Of a stretch of DNA of 13,247 nt, positions 23 through 13,247 are shown one piece after another. Below the pieces are notes generated by a model. It worked only from the letters and a program-made list of their open reading frames with translations. It ran no database searches and had not been told where the DNA came from. The number at the start of each line of letters is the position of its first letter. Within the stretch, counting starts at the first letter, position 1. Source of the stretch: a virus (taxonomy: Duplodnaviria; Heunggongvirae; Uroviricota; Caudoviricetes). The DNA is taken from IMG/VR virus record IMGVR_UViG_3300023038_000160; one strand, written 5' to 3'. The position numbers and the translations under genes were made by a program.

Positions 23-98
23 GCCGATATAGCTCAGTTGGTAGAGCAGCGCATTCGTAATGCGAAGGTCGTAGGTTCGACTCCTATTATCGGCACCA
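23..98 (+). tRNA. thrW: tRNA-Thr, anticodon CGT (reads ACG), CCA end encoded
   Basis: 76-nt cloverleaf readable by eye: acceptor GCCGATA/TATCGGC, D-arm GCTC-AGTTGGTA-GAGC, anticodon arm GCGCA-TTCGTAA-TGCGA, T-arm GTAGG-TTCGACT-CCTAT, discriminator A plus CCA. From memory it matches the enterobacterial tRNA-Thr(CGU) gene, a known integration target. Confidence 0.9.
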
Positions 99-703: not shown

Positions 704-856
704 ATGAAAAACATTGCAGCTATCAAACGTAATAACCGCAAGATTCACGCTCGTAAGTTCCTGTCTACGCCAGAGGGAAAAGCCTGGCTAGAACGTAAAC
801 AGCGAGAGAACGAAGAAAGAAAACTCCTTAGTGAGTTGAAATGGCTTAAGGATTGA
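704..856 (+). CDS. Small basic hypothetical protein (50 aa; MKNIAAIKRNNRKIHARKFLSTPEGKAWLERKQRENEERKLLSELKWLKD)
   Basis: ATG with GAGG 9 nt upstream; below the 60-aa cutoff of the ORF track; ends 14 nt before a palindromic hairpin. Lys/Arg-rich, possibly nucleic-acid binding. Confidence 0.3.
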   Translation: MKNIAAIKRNNRKIHARKFLSTPEGKAWLERKQRENEERKLLSELKWLKD

Positions 857-869
857 ATCACCAGTAGGC

Positions 870-905
870 GCATAACACATCCAGCGATCAAAGATGTGTT
901 TATGC
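870..905. terminator. Palindromic hairpin between convergent small ORFs (GCATAACACATC ... GATGTGTTTATGC)
   Basis: 12-bp near-perfect inverted repeat with 11-nt loop; no strong T-tract, so it may be a bidirectional terminator or a protein-binding palindrome. The arm resembles the GCATTACACA motif family seen further downstream. Confidence 0.35.
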
Positions 906-922
906 ACCTGATAGTGAAATTA

Positions 923-1081
923 TTAAAGTCGTTTAGTTAACATCGCCATTGCTTGAGCAATAATTGCAACAGCGTCCATCTCTTCACTGGAAGCGATGCA
1001 AATGCGGTAACTAATAGCCACAACGAATACATCAATAACGAGAAAGTGAATAGTGTGAAGATGTTTTGAAAGTAAATGCAT
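923..1081 (-). CDS. Small hydrophobic hypothetical protein (52 aa; MHLLSKHLHTIHFLVIDVFVVAISYRICIASSEEMDAVAIIAQAMAMLTKRL), probably single-pass membrane
   Basis: Minus-strand ATG at 1081 preceded by GGAGG with 5-nt spacing; central ~20-aa hydrophobic stretch; not in the ORF track because under 60 aa. Preferred over the track ORF 937..1146, which is in another frame and lacks an RBS. Confidence 0.3.
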   Translation of the reverse strand: MHLLSKHLHTIHFLVIDVFVVAISYRICIASSEEMDAVAIIAQAMAMLTKRL

Positions 1082-1475
1082 AACTTCCTCCGGTTTGTAG
1101 ATAGGAGGATTAGAACACGCATTAAATGATGTTGCAACAATGGCAATTTACCCTAATAGTCTACTATTCACCTCAATCTACGTCAACCAATATTTGATGT
1201 AGATTTAATTTTCTTTTAAAAACAATATGTTGCTATTTGTTGGGTTTTGGAGTTAGGTTGTTTTTTGGACGTTTCCATCAAGTGTAAAGATACGTCTAGC
1301 CTTCATAGTGAGTTCAGTTACTGTCTTTTTCTCTGAAATCGGCGCAAACGTGATCATCGCTTGAGGTTGCTGCTCTTACTTCTCAAATTGTGATGGAGAA
1401 CGATAAAGGTTAGAGGGCACTTTTATTTTTTTAAGCAAGTGTATAGCATAAGAATAATCTAAAAAGGGAGGTTAT

Positions 1476-2027
1476 ATGCGCAGGTCTGCATTTGTGAGGA
1501 TGATGATTTTTACAACGTTGTTTGTAGGGGGAGCTTCTACCGCAGTTGCTAAAAACTGCAAAAAAGGAATACCTTGTGGTAACTCGTGTATAGCTGTTGG
1601 TAAGACGTGCCGGATTGGCTCTTATGCCCCTTCATCTTATAAAAATCATTCATACTCTTATCCTTCATCCTCTATTCGAAGCTCGCAATCAAATAATTCA
1701 CGAAAAACTGAAGGAGTGAAAACGACTCCTGCTGCCAAAAATTATCTTTGCCAATACTCTATTGCATCAATCGAAAACGGACGTTTAGGGGCATTACGTG
1801 TTCAGGGATACGCACAAGTAACTTTATATGCAGATAGCTTCAAGGCTAACAGATTAAATGGAACATATTTGATATCGCCAAAACTGTATGCTAACGGCAA
1901 GTTTATGATGGCAGATGATAAAAGCAAGGTTTATGCTTATGATTCTTGGCTATTAAATTTTGCAATAAGCGATCGTATCACAAGAACGACAGAACAATGG
2001 GATCGATGTAAGCTCAATCAAAAATAA
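1476..2027 (+). CDS. Secreted cysteine-rich hypothetical protein (183 aa) with predicted Sec signal peptide
   Basis: Strong RBS (AAAAAGGGAGG 6 nt before ATG); N-terminus MRRSAFVRMMIFTTLFVGGASTAVA is a basic n-region, hydrophobic core and AxA cleavage motif; mature part starts with C-x4-C-x3-C-x6-C and has two more Cys near the C-terminus; followed by an 8-bp stem hairpin. No family recognised by eye. Confidence 0.6.
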   Translation: MRRSAFVRMMIFTTLFVGGASTAVAKNCKKGIPCGNSCIAVGKTCRIGSYAPSSYKNHSYSYPSSSIRSSQSNNSRKTEGVKTTPAAKNYLCQYSIASIENGRLGALRVQGYAQVTLYADSFKANRLNGTYLISPKLYANGKFMMADDKSKVYAYDSWLLNFAISDRITRTTEQWDRCKLNQK

Positions 2028-2045
2028 CAGTTAGAGAAGCTCTTG

Positions 2046-2105
2046 TAGAGGCATTATTGAGTTATTGGTTTTAATATTTTTGTGCCTCTATGGGCTTTTT
2101 TTGCC
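2046..2105 (+). terminator. Putative intrinsic terminator after the secreted-protein gene
   Basis: Perfect 8-bp inverted repeat TAGAGGCA (2046-2053) / TGCCTCTA (2083-2090) followed by GGGCTTTTTTTGCCTTTTT; the loop is long and AT-rich, so efficiency is uncertain. Confidence 0.35.
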
Positions 2106-2787
2106 TTTTTGCAATGTAGGAGAGAGCACAGGAATCGTTAAAATTAATTATTGGGGTATTTAAGGTTATTTTCAGGTGATTTAAGGGTATTAAACTTGAT
2201 TTAATTGGTTAAAATATAAACAGATAGTTCTGTATCTTATTGATTTATAAGGTTATTTTTAAATAAAGGTAAATAAAAAATAAATAGCTATAAATACATC
2301 TTAATACCTATATCCCTTCCCTTATGGCTAGATTGCGAGAGGTGCTTAACGCGATTTTCAGCGCCCCCCGATCTGGAAAATCCAGAATCCCCAAATATCA
2401 GCAAGGAATTTCTTGCACAATCAACATCGTTTTTACCTATTAAATCATTACACAGAAAGCCTTTCTGTAATGCCTCTCACTAAACTTTCACTAAACACGA
2501 GAATGATCGGTTTTATGTCGGATCTGATGCTAGAAACAGCACCACGTCTCACAAGGGCTGTAAGCGATGAAACCAGTGTTTATGCGGGTGCGGGTCAAAA
2601 TATAGGCCAAAATCCATTTAACATAATAATCATAATATGCACTAAGGAACACATAGAACGCCTTGAATTGATGTATCATGGGAAAAGTGATGGATTTTTT
2701 ACGTAGGAGCACGAGAGGGCTTCTGTTTACTTTTGTGTGCTATGAAATATAATTAAAGGTTTTTTTGTTTTTATTGTGTGAAGTGGT

Positions 2788-3230
2788 GGATTACACAGGG
2801 GAATAGATTAAATGGTGTTCTGTTTATACAGGTTTATTTGTTAGATCAACAATTTGGCATTTCTAAACAGATGTTTGAACGTTGCCAAATGTCTTGACAA
2901 CACAAGAAAAGGGCTTGCTATGCCACGCATTACACGAAATAAGGCTGTAAAAACAAAATAAATTTTAAAATTTGCACAAACGAGAAAACTCGTTCAGAAA
3001 CAAGCAGAACAATTTTTAGCCAACAATTTCTGATGGTGTGCTGTAAGCCGCATTACACAAGGCTTTGCGAAAGTGATGTAAAAGTGAAGAAAGTAAGAAT
3101 TGCACTTTTAAGCTACTTTTTCATTGAATTTTTAGTATGGAATTACACAGGAATAAGTTAGGGATATTCTATGATTTACACAGGGAATATAGGGGGATTA
3201 TGGCACACACATAGAAAGGCATTACACAGG
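2788..3230 (+). repeat. Array of same-orientation motif copies, consensus G(C/A)ATTACACAGG(G)
   Basis: Copies at 2790-2799, 3142-3151, 3221-3230 (exact ATTACACAGG) and variants at 2929-2937, 3052-3062, 3174-3185; further variants outside this span at 4353-4364 and 4435-4444. Three copies extend to ...CAGGG(G)AAT. Irregular spacing, all on the + strand. Confidence 0.6.
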
Positions 3231-3276
3231 GTGAGTGCTATGTGACAAATGGATGTAACGGTAGGTCATAGTGAGC

Positions 3277-3416
3277 TACCCCCTATCAAGTCTAACAGGG
3301 GTTTATAAAGAATAATAAACCGATGATACCCCTATCAATATTGATACCCCTATTAACTTTGATATGACTACCCCTATCAAGTCTGATACCCCTACCCCTA
3401 TCAAAACTGATACCCG
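3277..3416 (+). repeat. Iteron cluster, core (G/C)(A/T)TACCCCTATCAA, candidate replication origin
   Basis: Direct repeats at 3277-3294, 3325-3338, 3343-3356, 3368-3380, 3385-3404 and a partial copy at 3409-3416, spaced 18-24 bp (about two helical turns), immediately followed by a very AT-rich tract (3417-3490) that could act as a DNA unwinding element. Confidence 0.65.
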
Positions 3417-3489
3417 ATAAGAATAAGTTAATAAGAATAATTAAATAATAATTAAATAATATTCTTTATATCTATATATATATGATTTT

Positions 3490-3660
3490 TTGCCTTCCGG
3501 CGTTAGCTTCACTCTCTGGCAAGCAGCCTTACTCCGCTACCTTTCGGGCTACGTTGGCTGGCCCCGTTCCGCTCACACCGAAAGCAAAGCGTTACTTTCT
3601 TCGTGTAACTATCGTTGGCGGTAACGCCCACGAAGAAATACTATTGCGCTATGCGCAGTA
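3490..3660. other. GC-rich structured patch inside the AT-rich noncoding region; candidate cos/pac-like packaging site, primosome site or structured ncRNA
   Basis: Sharp local rise in GC; nested hairpin TTCTTCGTG(3596-3604)...CACGAAGAA(3633-3641) with inner CGTT/AACG stem; motifs CCGTTCCGCTC and GTTACTTTCTTCGTGTAACT resemble, from memory, the terminase-binding R elements and adjacent sequence of lambda cosB. Not verified by alignment. Confidence 0.3.
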
Positions 3661-3722
3661 AGAGTAATCACCTAACCAATCATACTGATTGCTTATGTGT
3701 TAACTCTATCTCTCTACCTCTT

Positions 3723-3880
3723 AATTCCACTTCCTACATTCTGTAGTTGTGTAATTACTCGAAGAGAGAGCGGCTAAAGCTCAATTACACTCTGCTTTCC
3801 TCGTGTAATTTCACTAAGCCTCAATACAATTCCACTTCCTACATTTAATAACTCTCGTTATTCTCTGTAGTTGTGTAATT
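3723..3880 (+). repeat. Split direct repeat: AATTCCACTTCCTACATT x2 and CTGTAGTTGTGTAATT x2
   Basis: 18-mer at 3723-3740 and 3828-3845; 16-mer at 3741-3756 and 3865-3880; the two halves are adjacent in copy 1 and separated by a 19-bp insert in copy 2. GTGTAATT also occurs at 3809-3816 and, inverted, at 3782-3789. Confidence 0.55.
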
Positions 3881-4509
3881 GTTTTCGGTGGAAAAGCCAG
3901 AGGCGACACCGAAAGAGAATTCTGATCTTATTAATCTTATCTATCTTAGTTATCTTACTTACTTATCTTACTTTATCTACTTTATTATTAATAATAGCTT
4001 TATAAGCTCTATGTAGCTCTCTGACGCAAGAAACAGAGTTCAGGAAGGGAATCACCTTAGAAAAGTGTTCTTTGCGTCATAATGTGTTTTATGAAGGATT
4101 CAGAGGTGTTTCATAACAGGAATGTATAGAGGATACTTTAGGTAATTAAAAATAAGGGGTCTAAATGCTTCTCTAACAGCATTAAGCAGGGTAGAGAATG
4201 GAAACGCATTGCCTACACATATAAGCTCACTACAGAGCTTTACATAGCGTTTTATAAAGTGACTCTCTATCTTATATCTACAATCACCTTTTCATATACC
4301 TAACAAATACAAAATAAGCCCCTTAAATAAGCCTCTGGCGAGCTAAACAGCCATTACATAAGGGAATGTATTGCTTTTATCAAAATCTCGTTAGAACGCG
4401 TTTTAGAGCGTTTTAGACAATAATGAAGAATAGCACTACACAGGAGAGCACGAATTGTTAAGCAAAAATGTAAGTGCATGAAAAAGATCAGTTTTTTTGT
4501 GAAAAGGTA

Positions 4510-4538
4510 TTGACAAATGTTTCTTTATATGTAATAAT
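4510..4538 (+). promoter_or_regulatory. Sigma70-type promoter for the regulator/replication operon
   Basis: TTGACA (4510-4515), 17-bp spacer, AATAAT (4533-4538) with extended -10 TG at 4530-4531; a ~100-nt leader containing a short hairpin and T-run precedes the first gene. Confidence 0.5.
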
Positions 4539-4648
4539 AGGTATTAGAGGGACAGAAAACATTCTTCTCTAAATAATCAAAATCAATGCACTTTGAAGCC
4601 GTCAGGCTTGCAAGGTGTTTTTTCTTTTAACTGAATAAGGAGTTTTTT

Positions 4649-4837
4649 ATGAAATGGTTCACATCTGAGCACGTCGTTCAGGCATTTAAAAAAGGTGAGT
4701 TATCTCGCCACCAAGTAGTAATGAATCGTAATATGGCAAGGAGTCGAGGTTATCCAGAGCGAGCTGCTTGCTTCAATGAAGCACTCAAGATTATTGATGA
4801 ACTAAGAAAAAATGAAAAAGAATCTGAAACAGAGTAA
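4649..4837 (+). CDS. Small putative DNA-binding regulator (62 aa)
   Basis: Strong RBS AAGGAG 7 nt upstream; first gene after the promoter; basic helical segment LSRHQVVMNRNMARSRG. Family not recognised. Confidence 0.5.
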   Translation: MKWFTSEHVVQAFKKGELSRHQVVMNRNMARSRGYPERAACFNEALKIIDELRKNEKESETE

Positions 4838-7839: not shown

Positions 7840-8868
7840 ATGATTCTAGGTAATGATTACGTTGATTTAGCTCCTCTGTTCTCTGCGCATAGCACTAGAA
7901 ATTATCTACTGTCTACCCTTGACTTCACTGATCCGGTGGGCGTTAGTTCTCATAAAGTAGCTGTTTCCCAGCTTGTCGAAAGCAACGAATCTCTGTTCAA
8001 CAAAGAAACCTCTCGTTTCTCTTCTGAGCATAACGTGACTAAGCGTGAACAAGGTAAAGAATGGCTGATCGAAATCCCGTATTTTCTTCGTGAAGATGTG
8101 ATTCGTCCTTCTGATGTTCAAGGCAAACGTAAACCTGGCACTGATTTTCAGGAAACACTCACTGATATTTATGCTGAGTATGTTGCTAAACATCACGTAG
8201 CGTATCAGCGTACAAAAGAGAGCGTATTGGCTGCATCTCTGTTTAGTGGTCGCACCTACACGCCTAAAACTGATGATGTTCTTATCGAGTGGGGCAAGCT
8301 GTTTAACGTATCAGCTATGAAAGCCACTGTGAACGCTTCCAGCACTGACACCACGAAGATTTTTAAAGAATTTGATCAGATTGCTACTGACATTATCGAG
8401 AAAGCACAAAGCCAGGCGGCTGCTGTAGAGCGTATTGTTGTTTTCTGTAAGCCGGAAGCCTTCTCTGCAATTCGATTCTCTGCGGGTATGGCAAACGCAT
8501 TCCAGTATGTAAGCCCACTGGAAGAGGGAAATGTTGTGTATCAGCGTCGTGACCTGCTACCAGGGGTGACAGCGTTCACTATTCCAGGAACTAACATTGA
8601 TGTTATTAAACTGGTAGATCCGCTACACCTTGCACATATGACTTCTGATGCGGTTGCGGTTCCGAAGTTTGCTAAAGGCTCTAATGTATATCAGAACATC
8701 TACGGGGCTGCTTCCAGCACCTTTGAACTGATTAATTCCGCTCCTGCTGAGGTGTACAGCTATAGCTATGAATCTTCTCGTGGTGATGCTGTTAACGTTG
8801 TTACAGAGAATAGCCAGATGGTTGTAAACCACGGCGTTGGCTTCTCCGTTCAAATCACTGTAAAATAA
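7840..8868 (+). CDS. Putative major capsid protein, lambda gpE-like (342 aa)
   Basis: RBS AAGGA; length matches lambda E (341 aa); by-eye matches to the recalled lambda E sequence: RIVVFCKPEAFSAIRF vs IIVFDPKGWALFRSF, LAASLFSGRTYT vs SAVLKGKYT, FELINSAP vs FTMIQSAP, and a C-terminal FSVQ vs FVSVQ; followed by a strong terminator. Confidence 0.6.
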   Translation: MILGNDYVDLAPLFSAHSTRNYLLSTLDFTDPVGVSSHKVAVSQLVESNESLFNKETSRFSSEHNVTKREQGKEWLIEIPYFLREDVIRPSDVQGKRKPGTDFQETLTDIYAEYVAKHHVAYQRTKESVLAASLFSGRTYTPKTDDVLIEWGKLFNVSAMKATVNASSTDTTKIFKEFDQIATDIIEKAQSQAAAVERIVVFCKPEAFSAIRFSAGMANAFQYVSPLEEGNVVYQRRDLLPGVTAFTIPGTNIDVIKLVDPLHLAHMTSDAVAVPKFAKGSNVYQNIYGAASSTFELINSAPAEVYSYSYESSRGDAVNVVTENSQMVVNHGVGFSVQITVK

Positions 8869-9174: not shown

Positions 9175-11001
9175 ATGTTAGAAATTAACACTTCTAAAAT
9201 TAAGAATACAGTAACATTTAGTGTAGATAAAGACAGCTTAAAAAAAACGAAAGACTCTATTACAGGCTTAAAGGAATTTGCAGAAAACATCAAGCCAGCT
9301 AAATTAAGGTTTGATAGTGTCACTAAAGGCTATAAGAAAGCACAAAGCGAAGTAGACAAGATTGCTCAACAGAAAGCTAAAACAGAAAAACAGAATCAAA
9401 GAGCACAAGCTGCCGCAGCAAGAGCACAGGCAAGGCAACAGGCACAAATAGCAGCACGTAAAGAGAAAGCAGAATTAAAACTTCTCGATGTGTCAAGCTC
9501 TATCAGTGCAATGCACCGTCTCTCTGTAGCGGAACAATACAAAGCTATTGCACAGGCTAGAGAGATAGCAAAACAATATGAGCAAGGCGCTATCTCGCTT
9601 GCACGTATGAATAGCCAGATGAAACGCTTACAACAACAACAACGTAAGATTAATGGCAACAGAAAAGCTCAATTTGCCCCCGTTAAGGGAGGATCAGGGA
9701 ATTCCGCCACTATGGGCGCTCTGTTATTTGGAGGCGCTACGGCTGCTGCTGGCGTGATGGCTGTTAGTAAAACCTCTGAATTTATGGCTAATAGCTTTGC
9801 GAATGCTGAAACACAAGGAGAATTAATCCAACGTGCAAGGCTTGGCGGTGTAGACGTTAACCAGATGTACAACATTACAGAATGGGCGTATAGAAACGGC
9901 GTTGACTCTATGATGGGTGATCAAGGGGCTAGAAAATACCTGGATCAGATGAAAGATGTTAGGGAACGTGCCGCAAAATCCTACAGTGAAGCTGAATTGG
10001 TGAAAGACAAGAAAGGAAAATCTGAATGGAAAGGCGGTGATAACGGTATTAATGAACTTCTAAACATCGGTGTTATTAACAAAAGCGACCTTAAAAAATT
10101 TGCTGATAATCCGGCTGGATTAATTTCTAAGGCTGTTAATGGAATGATGAAAAAAGGGTTTTCAGACTCCCAAATTGGACAACGTTTAGAAGACCTGGGC
10201 GATGATTTGATGCTTACATCAAAATATTGGCAACGTTCCGTTAAAGATGTACAAGAAAGTATTAATCAGCAAAAAGCCTCTGGAAAATGGCTAACAGAAA
10301 CACAGCAAGACTCTATTGTTAAATTCAGAGAACTAAACAGACAGCTTTCACAGCTTTCTGATGCAAGACAAGTAGCATTTGTAGACGGCTTTATGAAATC
10401 TCTCGATCCAAAAGTAACGGAAGAGTTTATGAAAAACCTTTCTAATCTCACTCCGTATTTTACGAAGCTTGGAGAAGCTACAGGAAGTCTCTTTGAAGCC
10501 ATTATGAAGATTGTAAACTGGTTTAATCGTAATGATGATAAGACAGATGCTATTCAGAAAAATATGGGAGATGCACCGCCATTAAGCAATGAAGGAATGA
10601 AACAGAATCTTTCTAACCTCGTTCCTGACCAATATAAAGGCGCTGGCACTGCAACAACTACACCTGATAATACTCATTCCATCTTTAACACAATTAAGGG
10701 ATGGCTTTTCGATGATAATTCTTCTGTGTCAGATGTAAAAATGTCAGTCAGCGAAGCACCGATAACCAATCTCAAACAGGGTGCTTTAAATAATCTTGCA
10801 ATGACAACTCCGGCTTATAATTTATCTCCTGTGTTTAATCTGAATCCTACATTTGAAGTGGTAACAGAGGTTCCTCTTACTATTAATTCTGACACATCAA
10901 GATTAAGCGATTATGTGGATTTTACAGCGAGAGCAAGTCGGGATAGCTTCTTGAAATCATTAACATTAACCAGCTTATCAGGACAATCTAACGGCGGGTA
11001 A
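9175..11001 (+). CDS. Large coiled-coil protein with Gly/Ala-rich hydrophobic segment (608 aa); candidate scaffold, tape-measure-like or ejection-type virion protein
   Basis: RBS AAGGGGGA; N-terminal ~170 aa rich in Q/A/K/R (AQQKAKTEKQNQRAQAAAARAQARQQAQIAARKEKAELK), then GGSGNSATMGALLFGGATAAAGVMAV (~9697-9775), then an S/T/N-rich C-terminal part. Function inferred from composition only. Confidence 0.55.
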   Translation: MLEINTSKIKNTVTFSVDKDSLKKTKDSITGLKEFAENIKPAKLRFDSVTKGYKKAQSEVDKIAQQKAKTEKQNQRAQAAAARAQARQQAQIAARKEKAELKLLDVSSSISAMHRLSVAEQYKAIAQAREIAKQYEQGAISLARMNSQMKRLQQQQRKINGNRKAQFAPVKGGSGNSATMGALLFGGATAAAGVMAVSKTSEFMANSFANAETQGELIQRARLGGVDVNQMYNITEWAYRNGVDSMMGDQGARKYLDQMKDVRERAAKSYSEAELVKDKKGKSEWKGGDNGINELLNIGVINKSDLKKFADNPAGLISKAVNGMMKKGFSDSQIGQRLEDLGDDLMLTSKYWQRSVKDVQESINQQKASGKWLTETQQDSIVKFRELNRQLSQLSDARQVAFVDGFMKSLDPKVTEEFMKNLSNLTPYFTKLGEATGSLFEAIMKIVNWFNRNDDKTDAIQKNMGDAPPLSNEGMKQNLSNLVPDQYKGAGTATTTPDNTHSIFNTIKGWLFDDNSSVSDVKMSVSEAPITNLKQGALNNLAMTTPAYNLSPVFNLNPTFEVVTEVPLTINSDTSRLSDYVDFTARASRDSFLKSLTLTSLSGQSNGG

Positions 11002-11035: not shown

Positions 11036-11749
11036 ATGGCGACCGCCGGGATTTTAACCATACGTGCAGCAAATACTCCAGAACAACACGTTCAGGCTGT
11101 TTACAAAGCAGAACAAGATATAAACTCTACAAAAAACGAAAATAGCAAAGCTAATAAAACAAAAGGAGAAAATGGGTTTGCTATTGTTACCAGTGGCTTG
11201 GCATCTTCTGGCAATGACGTTTATGAAAATTATATGGCACTGGCCTTTGACAGTGTTGACGATGTGAACGTGAGACGTTCGGCAGATGTTACAAGCTACC
11301 CCGTAGAAAATGGTGCTACTGTGTCTGATCACGTTCAAATTAAAAACAATAAGTTTTCTCTTAAAGGAAGGATCACTGAAACACCGATTAAAAGCGATCC
11401 TGGCTTGTTAAAGAGTGCAGGGGTGAACGGGAACAGAAGATCATTAGCTATCGACTACCTGAATCAGATTATGGACAGTAGACAGCCTTTTCTTCTTGTT
11501 ACAGAAAATAAAACTTTTGAGAACGTTGTTTTAACAGGAATCGAATACACAGAAGAGGCAAGCGAATCCCTGGTATTTGATCTTAGCTTTGAGCAAATAA
11601 GATTAGTTTCTTATGGCACTGTGAACACTGTAGCTATCAAAACACAGCCATCTAAGAACATCGGGGCTAATATGAAAAAACGTGTTAACACTGAAAAATC
11701 AAGTAGTGAAGGTGAAGACACTATTACTCCTGCCTTTAAACAGGAATAG
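11036..11749 (+). CDS. Hypothetical protein (237 aa), possible virion-associated protein
   Basis: RBS AAGGAAAA; same operon as the 608-aa gene; no family recognised. Confidence 0.5.
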   Translation: MATAGILTIRAANTPEQHVQAVYKAEQDINSTKNENSKANKTKGENGFAIVTSGLASSGNDVYENYMALAFDSVDDVNVRRSADVTSYPVENGATVSDHVQIKNNKFSLKGRITETPIKSDPGLLKSAGVNGNRRSLAIDYLNQIMDSRQPFLLVTENKTFENVVLTGIEYTEEASESLVFDLSFEQIRLVSYGTVNTVAIKTQPSKNIGANMKKRVNTEKSSSEGEDTITPAFKQE

Positions 11750-11830: not shown

Positions 11831-13165
11831 CTATGGCGTTGTTTTACGCCTTAAATTTGATTTTTTATTGATTGATAAGCCTTTCTCTATTTCAGGGTAG
11901 CGTAGAAGCTCAATATATTTTTTAAGCTCTACTGGAGAAGCTGCATTCTTGCTATATGTGCGGAATGTCTCTGTATTGCCGCGTGTATGGCCCAGGAGAA
12001 GGGCGATCCTGTCTTCTGGAATTTGATTTCGATCAAGAAGCTGTGCTACTCCGTGTCTCAGAGAATGAAACACCTTCCTTTCTGTTCCCTTTTCCCCTAA
12101 AGCCTTTCGTTTAGCTCTTGTAAATCTCTGCGTGTGCCACGTAGAGCGTTTACCATCAGCACGCTCTGTAATGCTGGCGTGATAGAACAAAAAGCCATTA
12201 TGAGGCTTTTCACGCAGCGACAACACCAACGGAGTGATAAGGCTATGTACAGGCACAACACGTGCCGCAGCTTTCGTTTTTCCCTGTGTGATTTCAAAAC
12301 ACAGCACACCTTCGATCTCTTTCACATCGTCTATTGTGAGACTTGCTATCTCATTGATCCGCATACCTGTATATAAACCGATAAGACACAAAGCTATCAT
12401 TTCTTTGTTTTCTGCTGAATTACCGGAAAATACTTGCAACACCTGCAATAGCTCTTTGTTAGAAAATGCCTCGTAGCTCTCTCTACTTTGTGCCACATCA
12501 AGCCTATGCCCTCGCCAGGGGGAGAGCGCCCTTTCTGGCGCATCGTGGTAACGTGATGAAGCTAACTCCCATAGCTGGGCCATTGGGCTGATATAATTTG
12601 CAATTGATTGTTGTGAAAGGGTTTTTTGCATGTGTTCAATCCAGCCTGTAACAGTGGTGCGGCTTACATCTTGCAATGCAATATCAGGCTTTTTACGGTA
12701 GGAGAGAAACATCTCTACCGCTTTTCTTGCCTTAGCTAAAGTGGCTGGCTTCTTCTTCGTGCTGTTAATAGTCAGGTAGATTTCAAGAATTTTAAGCAAT
12801 GATGGACACGAAGACGCTGTATCTTGCATTCTGGTAGCTGTTTTGGCGTATTTAGCCTTACTGCGTAACAGTTCCAGCGTGTTCTCTATTGTGCTGTTTA
12901 CAGGAGCGACACTCTCGCGTAAGCAATGGTATTCATCTGCAATCTGATCACGCTTTCTACGTGCAACACGAAGATTACTTGTGTGCAGACTCCTGACAAA
13001 CGTCCTTTTTCCTTCAAAAAAGGGCTGCATATACACAGGCAGCGTGATCCTTAAATAGTAGTTACCGTAAGAATCACAGATTATGTATTGATTGGGCTTG
13101 TATCTCATAAACTCCCCGGCTAAAGTGTCGGAGCGTTTGTAATGTGAAAATTGATTGTAACGCAT
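11831..13165 (-). CDS. Tyrosine recombinase / phage-type integrase (444 aa) with N-terminal arm-binding-like domain
   Basis: Catalytic signature visible in the translation: TGMRINEI (Arg), HSLRHG (His-x-x-Arg), LLGHTRGNTETFRTYS (His and catalytic Tyr). An alternative start at 13108 (MRYKPNQ..., GGGGAG 3 nt upstream) is possible. Codon composition looks more GC-rich than the rest of the island. Confidence 0.85.
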   Translation of the reverse strand: MRYNQFSHYKRSDTLAGEFMRYKPNQYIICDSYGNYYLRITLPVYMQPFFEGKRTFVRSLHTSNLRVARRKRDQIADEYHCLRESVAPVNSTIENTLELLRSKAKYAKTATRMQDTASSCPSLLKILEIYLTINSTKKKPATLAKARKAVEMFLSYRKKPDIALQDVSRTTVTGWIEHMQKTLSQQSIANYISPMAQLWELASSRYHDAPERALSPWRGHRLDVAQSRESYEAFSNKELLQVLQVFSGNSAENKEMIALCLIGLYTGMRINEIASLTIDDVKEIEGVLCFEITQGKTKAAARVVPVHSLITPLVLSLREKPHNGFLFYHASITERADGKRSTWHTQRFTRAKRKALGEKGTERKVFHSLRHGVAQLLDRNQIPEDRIALLLGHTRGNTETFRTYSKNAASPVELKKYIELLRYPEIEKGLSINKKSNLRRKTTP

Positions 13166-13247
13166 AGAAAATGATAATTTTTTCTATAAGATTCAATCAA
13201 TTAGTAATGGTCGTAGGTGATGGCATTAACACGAGATTAATCGAGTG

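Follow-up and report, generated by a model that had tools for sequence, protein, structure and literature searches.

The gene at positions 1476-2027 (plus strand) of the window, that is, of the whole stretch of 13,247 nucleotides that was analysed, encodes a protein in which two extracytoplasmic modules are joined that, judging by sequence matches, are shuffled independently in nature. The observations made on this protein and on its genomic setting are best integrated by assuming a moron-type cassette, carried by an island at the thrW locus, whose product is periplasmic and most likely acts in superinfection exclusion; as a whole, this account is put forward tentatively. That the protein is exported and that its gene is cargo can be read from the sequences as very probable, and the exclusion function, for which the argument is one of analogy, is a possibility that we regard as rather doubtful.

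The window corresponds to an island of approximately 13 kb at the Escherichia coli thrW locus, and in the best-matching complete genome proB-proA is found just upstream and the pao genes past the far end. The island is integrated at a tRNA-Thr(CGU) gene, thrW (23-98, plus strand), which forms its left end and was recognised by ARAGORN and Rfam and by the proA-thrW flank in NZ_CP040269, while the far end carries a tyrosine integrase gene on the minus strand (11831-13165; Pfam Phage_integrase and phrog_1). Pfam and PHROG matches identified a lambda-E-type major capsid gene (7840-8868), a tape-measure-like gene with a 608-residue product (9175-11001), a Dit-like gene (11036-11749) and an HTH_36 replication-initiator-like gene. 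Because no terminase or portal gene was found in the Pfam and PHROG scans of the window, the island is more like a phage satellite than a prophage. Its kind looks like a satellite family without prior characterisation that bears capsid and tail genes, and a literature search found no paper describing this type of island. Homologues of the capsid gene are present in 396 of 5,426 complete E. coli genomes (about 7%), at thrW, glyU and other sites. The tRNA gene lies 1.4 kb upstream of the gene under study, which agrees with its earlier placement next to the tRNA end. Two small conserved ORFs are found in between, neither of which has a PHROG match: one on the plus strand (704-856), encoding a basic protein of 50 residues similar to WP_000788776 and having its 3' end altered at the cassette junction, according to a junction alignment, and one on the minus strand (923-1081), encoding a hydrophobic protein of 52 residues similar to WP_000550449.

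The gene itself consists of 183 codons plus a stop codon, starts with ATG, and is found both in the ORF list and as an annotated CDS in NZ_CP040269, its product being similar to RefSeq WP_001323651.1, a 'hypothetical protein'. Homologues of the protein number 68 at E <= 1e-3. Comparison with a 71%-identical homologue from a second island lineage gave dN = 0.22 and dS = 1.52 (dN/dS ~0.15), and this is therefore a real gene under purifying selection, by which a pseudogene reading is effectively refuted. A Shine-Dalgarno sequence, GGGAGG (1466-1471, plus strand), can be read directly 4 nt before the ATG. Downstream, RNA folding revealed an intrinsic-terminator-like hairpin followed by U tracts (2034-2112, plus strand), in which the hairpin proper (2034-2100; -28.4 kcal/mol, z = -3.7 against shuffled sequences) runs into GGGCUUUUUUUGCCUUUUU; a simple terminator scan had missed it because its loop is long and branched. 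That scan did detect a terminator-like hairpin upstream (1175-1205, plus strand), which would shield the gene from transcripts that start further upstream. In the sequence before the gene no consensus sigma-70 promoter was detected and only a weak -10-like AATAAT (1453-1458) can be discerned by eye; expression from the resident island is for this reason an assumption. The preliminary description had presented the gene as its own transcription unit, with a strong ribosome-binding site and a downstream hairpin. Both of these elements are present, and the proposal is backed by the flanking terminators and the cassette boundaries, but not by a promoter. The GC content of the gene (0.39) lies within that of the island around it (0.33-0.40), so that composition does not point to the gene having been acquired separately.

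The N-terminal residues 1-25 (1476-1550, plus strand) form a predicted Sec-type signal peptide, which was recognised by reading of the sequence and by hydropathy. The n-region, MRRSAFVR, contains three Arg; the h-region, MMIFTTLFVGGA, is a 12-residue hydrophobic core with Kyte-Doolittle values of 1.5-1.7; and the c-region, S-T-A-V-A, places Ala at positions -3 and -1 before Lys26, so that SPase I is predicted to cleave after A-V-A. The protein thus has what is expected of a Sec/SPase I substrate, namely a charged n-region, a hydrophobic h-region of 10-15 residues and small residues at -3 and -1, and the clear Sec signal peptide noted beforehand is borne out. This region diverges fast between lineages (dN 0.52), and its n-h-c layout is kept in diverged homologues. 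A lipoprotein (SPase II) reading was rejected, as there is no lipobox and the first Cys, Cys28, is preceded by V-A-K-N. Given such a signal peptide, the mature protein of 158 residues should reach the periplasm. The term 'secreted', used in the preliminary description, holds in the sense of predicted export to the periplasm, but nothing points to a crossing of the outer membrane. A hydrophobic N-terminus directly before the barrel domain described below was likewise found in all distant relatives and in 73 of 73 prophage relatives, the latter being encoded by the viral contigs that an IMG/VR scan retrieved. The combination that the preliminary description had named as speaking against it, no secretion together with homology to a cytoplasmic housekeeping family, did not turn up: scans against Pfam, NCBIfam and PADLOC gave no match, and export signals are found in all of the relatives. 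As all relatives have a signal peptide, the protein is not taken for a cytoplasmic or housekeeping one.

All six Cys of the protein (residues 28, 34, 38, 45, 92 and 178, by translation) lie in its mature part, as had been noticed from the start. Among 42 homologues C28, C34, C38, C92 and C178 are invariant and C45 is kept in at least 90%. The first four define a mini-module that spans residues 26-48 (1551-1619, plus strand; KNCKKGIPCGNSCIAVGKTCRIG); the four-Cys cluster pointed out previously is thus real, although its spacing is C-x5-C-x3-C-x6-C and not C-x4-C-x3-C-x6-C. In the comparison with the 71%-identical homologue this module accumulates 12 synonymous differences and no non-synonymous one. 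An exhaustive HMMER search of 1.84 billion representatives returned matches that fall into two independent groups, one restricted to the barrel and the other to the Cys region. The latter, which matches only residues ~5-60, is composed mostly of small exported proteins with the motif C-x2-G-x-P-C-G-x-[ST]-C-I-x6-C just past the signal peptide. The motif was present in 195 of 226 fetched proteins, and in 159 of these 195 the first Cys falls at residues 20-29, right after the signal peptide. It is found fused to SH3_3, SNase (staphylococcal nuclease), Excalibur and Ada-like domains, repeated in tandem (two or three copies), or by itself in proteins of 42-83 residues. No Pfam or NCBIfam model covers it, and a literature search on the motif strings found no paper mentioning it. 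AlphaFold2 (AF2) modelling of the module with 123 sequences yielded one small beta-hairpin of moderate confidence (core pLDDT ~77-80), too small and uncertain for a fold search. It may be that the motif stands for a mini-domain, so far undescribed, that serves hundreds of exported proteins outside the cytoplasm, for anchoring or for binding metal. A degenerate version without the first Cys, G-x-PCGDS-[HY]-I-x5-C-R-V-G, is repeated several times in giant polyvalent proteins of phages or plasmids (P0173, P0182, P0209), one of which also bears ART-PolyVal domains, and because of these copies the motif is not confined to exported proteins; the paper on polyvalent proteins contains no description of it.

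The mini-module is followed by a low-complexity linker rich in Ser, Tyr and Pro (residues 49-85; 1620-1730, plus strand; pLDDT < 50), with 12 Ser in the 43 residues counted (46-88), which is the fastest-evolving part of the protein apart from the signal peptide. The C-terminal part (residues 86-181; 1731-2018, plus strand), as defined by AF2 and PHROG, is a predicted 8-9-stranded beta-barrel with Cys92 on its first strand and Cys178 on its last, and a disulfide between both would probably close the barrel. In the AF2 model built with 42 homologues this all-beta barrel is confident (residues 85-181, pLDDT ~87-95) and all the N-terminal parts are of low confidence. Residues 86-181 match phrog_2578 (E = 2.4e-17) and phrog_14768 (E = 1.2e-16), both families of unknown function, and contain the conserved signature FKAxRPxG...DDxxKVY...SDRIxKTTEQWxxC. 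Scans of the 183-residue protein against Pfam (E <= 0.1) and NCBIfam gave no match, and in PADLOC-DB no family was hit at E <= 1; none of the sources searched provides a name for a member of either module family. As for the fold, the barrel has no solved relative that convinces: Foldseek against the PDB gave nothing below E = 0.04 for it, a profile made from its alignment retrieved a single match among PDB sequences, at chance level, and the structure matches in BFVD were uncharacterised phage proteins only. A profile search of a 5.8-billion-protein set with the same alignment retrieved mostly fragments of the same family.

The HMMER group that matches only residues 86-181 comprises exported proteins of 175-348 residues in which the barrel comes right after the signal peptide and is followed by differing C-terminal domains; among the prophage proteins that have the barrel without the 4-Cys module (227-342 residues) there are at least four different C-terminal domains. 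Since its two modules match independent groups, the protein is considered a chimera made of a signal peptide, the 4-Cys mini-module, a disordered Ser/Tyr-rich tether and the barrel. This order of 4-Cys module and barrel occurs, among the homologues found, only in elements of Enterobacteriaceae and Morganella. The Morganella homologue (L083-L086), of 219 residues and 36% identity, has the same order and is flanked by a gene for a UmuC-like polymerase and one for a glycosyltransferase, a setting that differs from those of the E. coli islands and of the prophages. By its sequence, the 183-residue protein is a member of the uncharacterised phrog_2578/14768 family, with whose prophage proteins it shares the barrel match, the signature from FKAxRPxG to SDRIxKTTEQWxxC and the Cys pair. 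It differs from them in architecture: in the prophage proteins the barrel follows the signal peptide and precedes a variable C-terminal domain, whereas here it is C-terminal, with the 4-Cys module and the linker in front.

The limits of the segment that carries the gene were defined by blastn against related islands (L010, L011 and L001) and by junction alignments. A larger variable segment (855-2094, plus strand), which also holds the minus-strand ORF 923-1081, is absent or replaced in thrW islands that are about 95% identical, and variants of it fall into classes across E. coli genomes. L011 has ~110 bp in its place and L010 has other DNA with a recombinase-family gene, in both cases with ~95% identity on either side, while the island of an O104:H4 strain (L012) is common to the window up to position 1356 and then diverges into other DNA. 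The smallest gene-specific segment is therefore 1357-2094 (plus strand), with its left edge set by L012 and its right edge by L010 and L011; this moron-like cassette contains 119 nt of upstream sequence, the ORF and the terminator, and its size is bounded between 0.74 and 1.24 kb. As in morons in the sense of Juhala and Hendrix, the segment 855-2094 is extra DNA between segments that are adjacent in related genomes, and it has a terminator of its own (the hairpin 2034-2100 and the U tracts). Morons in that sense also have a promoter of their own that is active in the repressed element, for which the weak AATAAT would be the only candidate here, and a base composition unlike that of the neighbours, which is not seen. 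The gene occurs in 131 of the 5,426 complete E. coli genomes (99 at >=99% identity and 32 at 60-80%), against 396 for the capsid gene, and about two thirds of the genomes with the island capsid gene are without it. These figures, together with its absence or replacement in near-identical islands, identify the gene as accessory cargo, as had been proposed in the preliminary description.

A 68%-identical homologue is found 500 nt from a tRNA-Gly(CCC) gene, at the end of the second island lineage, which is located at glyU, and DNA similarity between the thrW and glyU lineages is confined to the gene itself. In one glyU-type island (L004, 10590-11556) this homologue is followed by a second signal-peptide protein of 165 residues and by a 143-residue protein ending in a CxxC...CxxC zinc-ribbon-like motif, which may constitute a small cargo operon. 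Other occupants of the variable spot are a 'recombinase family protein' of 180-183 residues on the opposite strand (L010, 4290-4829; L012, 8024-8575) and, near the end of another glyU island (L013, 5507-7031), a YecR-family lipoprotein gene accompanied by a recombinase-family gene. The spot tends to collect envelope proteins.

The prophage relatives were also examined for their genomic positions. In 39 of the 73 contigs the barrel gene is followed, on the same strand, by a tape-measure gene that begins 10-105 nt after its end. One of these neighbours was confirmed as phrog_1107, and the whole set of 39 shows homology to that gene (28-100% identity, in many cases only 28-36%), so the association spans diverged phages and not one clone. 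For at least 14 of the 39, a phrog_791 protein (of unknown function) is encoded on the upstream side and is taken by position only to represent the tail-assembly-chaperone region. A second slot is represented by 20 of the 73 barrel genes, which lie on the same strand as a cI/S24-type repressor gene and begin 15 nt past its end; these 20 copies are essentially one prophage lineage, their repressors being 94-100% identical. The place right after the repressor resembles that of rex, where genes are expressed in lysogens. In isolated phages the barrel was found only in two Klebsiella genomes, identical and derived from prophages, where it lies in a moron-rich stretch before the tape-measure gene. 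In the slot before the tape-measure gene, a lipoprotein gene with a lipobox (LTGC or LAGC) is often present beside the barrel gene (L016, 5300-5815; L041, upstream ORF); those two examples have no PHROG match, and the slot seems to accumulate several envelope morons.

The first of these slots is that of HK97 gene 15, the founding 'moron' and a proven superinfection-exclusion gene (PMC3594210), which likewise lies between the tail-assembly-chaperone region and the tape-measure gene (PMC3594210). The likeness extends to the gene under study, as both it and gene 15 (whose product is YebO-like) are self-contained accessory units for an envelope-targeted protein and share a cassette anatomy of short upstream region, ORF and terminator. 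However, gp15 is a small inner-membrane protein, whereas the 183-residue protein is predicted to be soluble and exported, with two modules and a cleavable signal peptide; no relation in sequence or fold exists between the two (no YebO match in the Pfam scan at E <= 0.1), and the present gene is on a satellite-like island, not beside a tape-measure gene. P1 Sim is an exported phage protein that stops later phages at the envelope. The same is true of T4 Sp, T5 Llp and the Cor proteins of phi80 and N15 (PMC11436027, PMC3594210). With all of these the protein has in common that it would be exported, made by a resident or infecting phage element and active at the envelope; it differs from Llp and Cor, which belong to the lipoproteins or outer-membrane proteins and act by blocking FhuA, and no homology to any of these proteins came up in the searches made.

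Superinfection exclusion, one of the two roles suggested in the preliminary description, is supported circumstantially in that 39 of the 73 relatives occupy the gp15 slot and 20 the place after a cI-type repressor, and satellites are known to carry anti-phage cargo at their ends (PMC11364771). The argument from the slot is one of positional analogy only: gp15 is unrelated, and morons in such slots also encode functions other than exclusion, such as Bor, Lom and SodC (PMC3594210). The mechanism proposed for exclusion would be the following. A weak AT-rich promoter between the two terminators would drive expression from the resident island, and the protein would be exported, oxidised in the periplasm and active in the cell envelope, to the benefit of island and host. 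Its target would be a periplasmic step in genome delivery by an incoming phage, at the tail tip, the tape-measure channel or the passage through the cell wall, and a block in the cytoplasm would be unlikely. The barrel would act as the constant working or docking part, and the 4-Cys module with its tether would serve at the N-terminus for anchoring or as a second module for binding, in place of which the prophage relatives would use their variable C-terminal domains. A broader proposal, which we consider unlikely as it stands, is that the phrog_2578/14768 barrel defines a new and widespread family of periplasmic exclusion proteins directed against delivery through tape measure or tail tip. In it the swappable module (variable C-terminal domains in prophages, the 4-Cys module in satellites) would set specificity or anchoring, and the satellite version would keep out competitors but spare the helper; separately from this, the 4-Cys motif would be an undescribed mini-domain.

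Among the alternatives, it is improbable that the protein is a periplasmic inhibitor of, or immunity protein against, cell-wall hydrolases, with the barrel binding and neutralising an enzyme of the lysozyme or amidase type, as in MliC/PliC/PhiA or T4 Sp. Candidate targets would be host lysozyme, effectors of the T6SS or colicin type, and muralytic domains associated with phage tails, and this explanation overlaps with exclusion if the enzyme is that of a phage; the 183-residue protein does not match the Pfam MliC model with its conserved motifs and is no member of the MliC/PliC lysozyme inhibitors. We give the same low probability to a moron for host fitness or virulence, in which an envelope or surface protein would bind a ligand in serum resistance, adhesion or the capture of nutrients or metals, like Bor, Lom or the neisserial surface-lipoprotein barrels. 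Indeed, morons often serve the host (PMC3594210), metal binding by the four clustered Cys is possible, and the structural neighbours of the barrel include NHBA-C, HpuA-C, fHbp, TbpB lobes and PmSLP-1. Yet the scores of these neighbours are weak, the protein has neither a lipobox nor a known route to the surface, and within the searches made, in which the contexts of distant relatives were surveyed on viral contigs, the barrel family is found only in prophages and satellites. The carriers, moreover, show no pathotype pattern, their sources being molluscs, pigs, poultry, dogs, wastewater, soil and humans, and the role as a virulence effector suggested in the preliminary description finds no specific support.

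A component of the satellite life cycle, that is, an envelope factor that aids release or tampers with lysis or injection by the helper phage during induction, is a long shot. The homologues at the tRNA-proximal end of two island lineages are consistent with such a role, as are the tape-measure-like and Dit-like genes of the islands and the ties of the prophage relatives to tape-measure genes, but about two thirds of the genomes with the capsid gene, and islands 95% identical to this one, do without the gene. Furthermore, phages assemble their tails in the cytoplasm, whereas the protein studied here is exported. Finally, a decaying or functionless passenger ORF, for which the patchy distribution and the lack of a known function could be invoked, is scarcely credible for an intact frame that is >=99% identical in 99 genomes, has a confidently predicted fold, and shows a dN/dS of ~0.15 with 0 non-synonymous against 12 synonymous differences in its Cys module.

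If the exclusion reading is true, a family of domains that so far bears only the label 'hypothetical' would turn into a new class of factors excluding phages at the envelope, present in prophages and satellites of Enterobacteriaceae, with the tape-measure neighbourhood and the varying second module as an experimental handle, and this would bear on host range in phage therapy and on competition between satellites and phages. If it is false, the gene is still a clean case of turnover of moron-like cargo at the tRNA end of an uncharacterised island family. The 4-Cys module is a separate and cheap target for domain annotation, as it stands at the front of many exported proteins of the SH3, nuclease and Excalibur kinds and has no Pfam or NCBIfam match.

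Some further features of the island deserve mention. The only trace of a right-end attachment repeat within the window is a 10-nt match (GGTCGTAGGT) between 13209-13218 and 68-77, in the region of the tRNA T-arm; a repeat search found nothing longer inside the window, and the right boundary of the island is consequently not firmly placed. Beyond the cassette, a stretch of ~2.7 kb (2095-4811) has no convincing ORF and no RefSeq annotation but is 86-94% conserved among island variants; Rfam, applied to the whole window, matched the tRNA only and found no RNA family in this stretch. Within it, at 3280-3418, four or five direct repeats (TACCCCTATCAA...GATACCCCTA) are spaced by 18-24 nt and resemble iterons of a replication origin that would belong to the neighbouring HTH_36 initiator-like protein.
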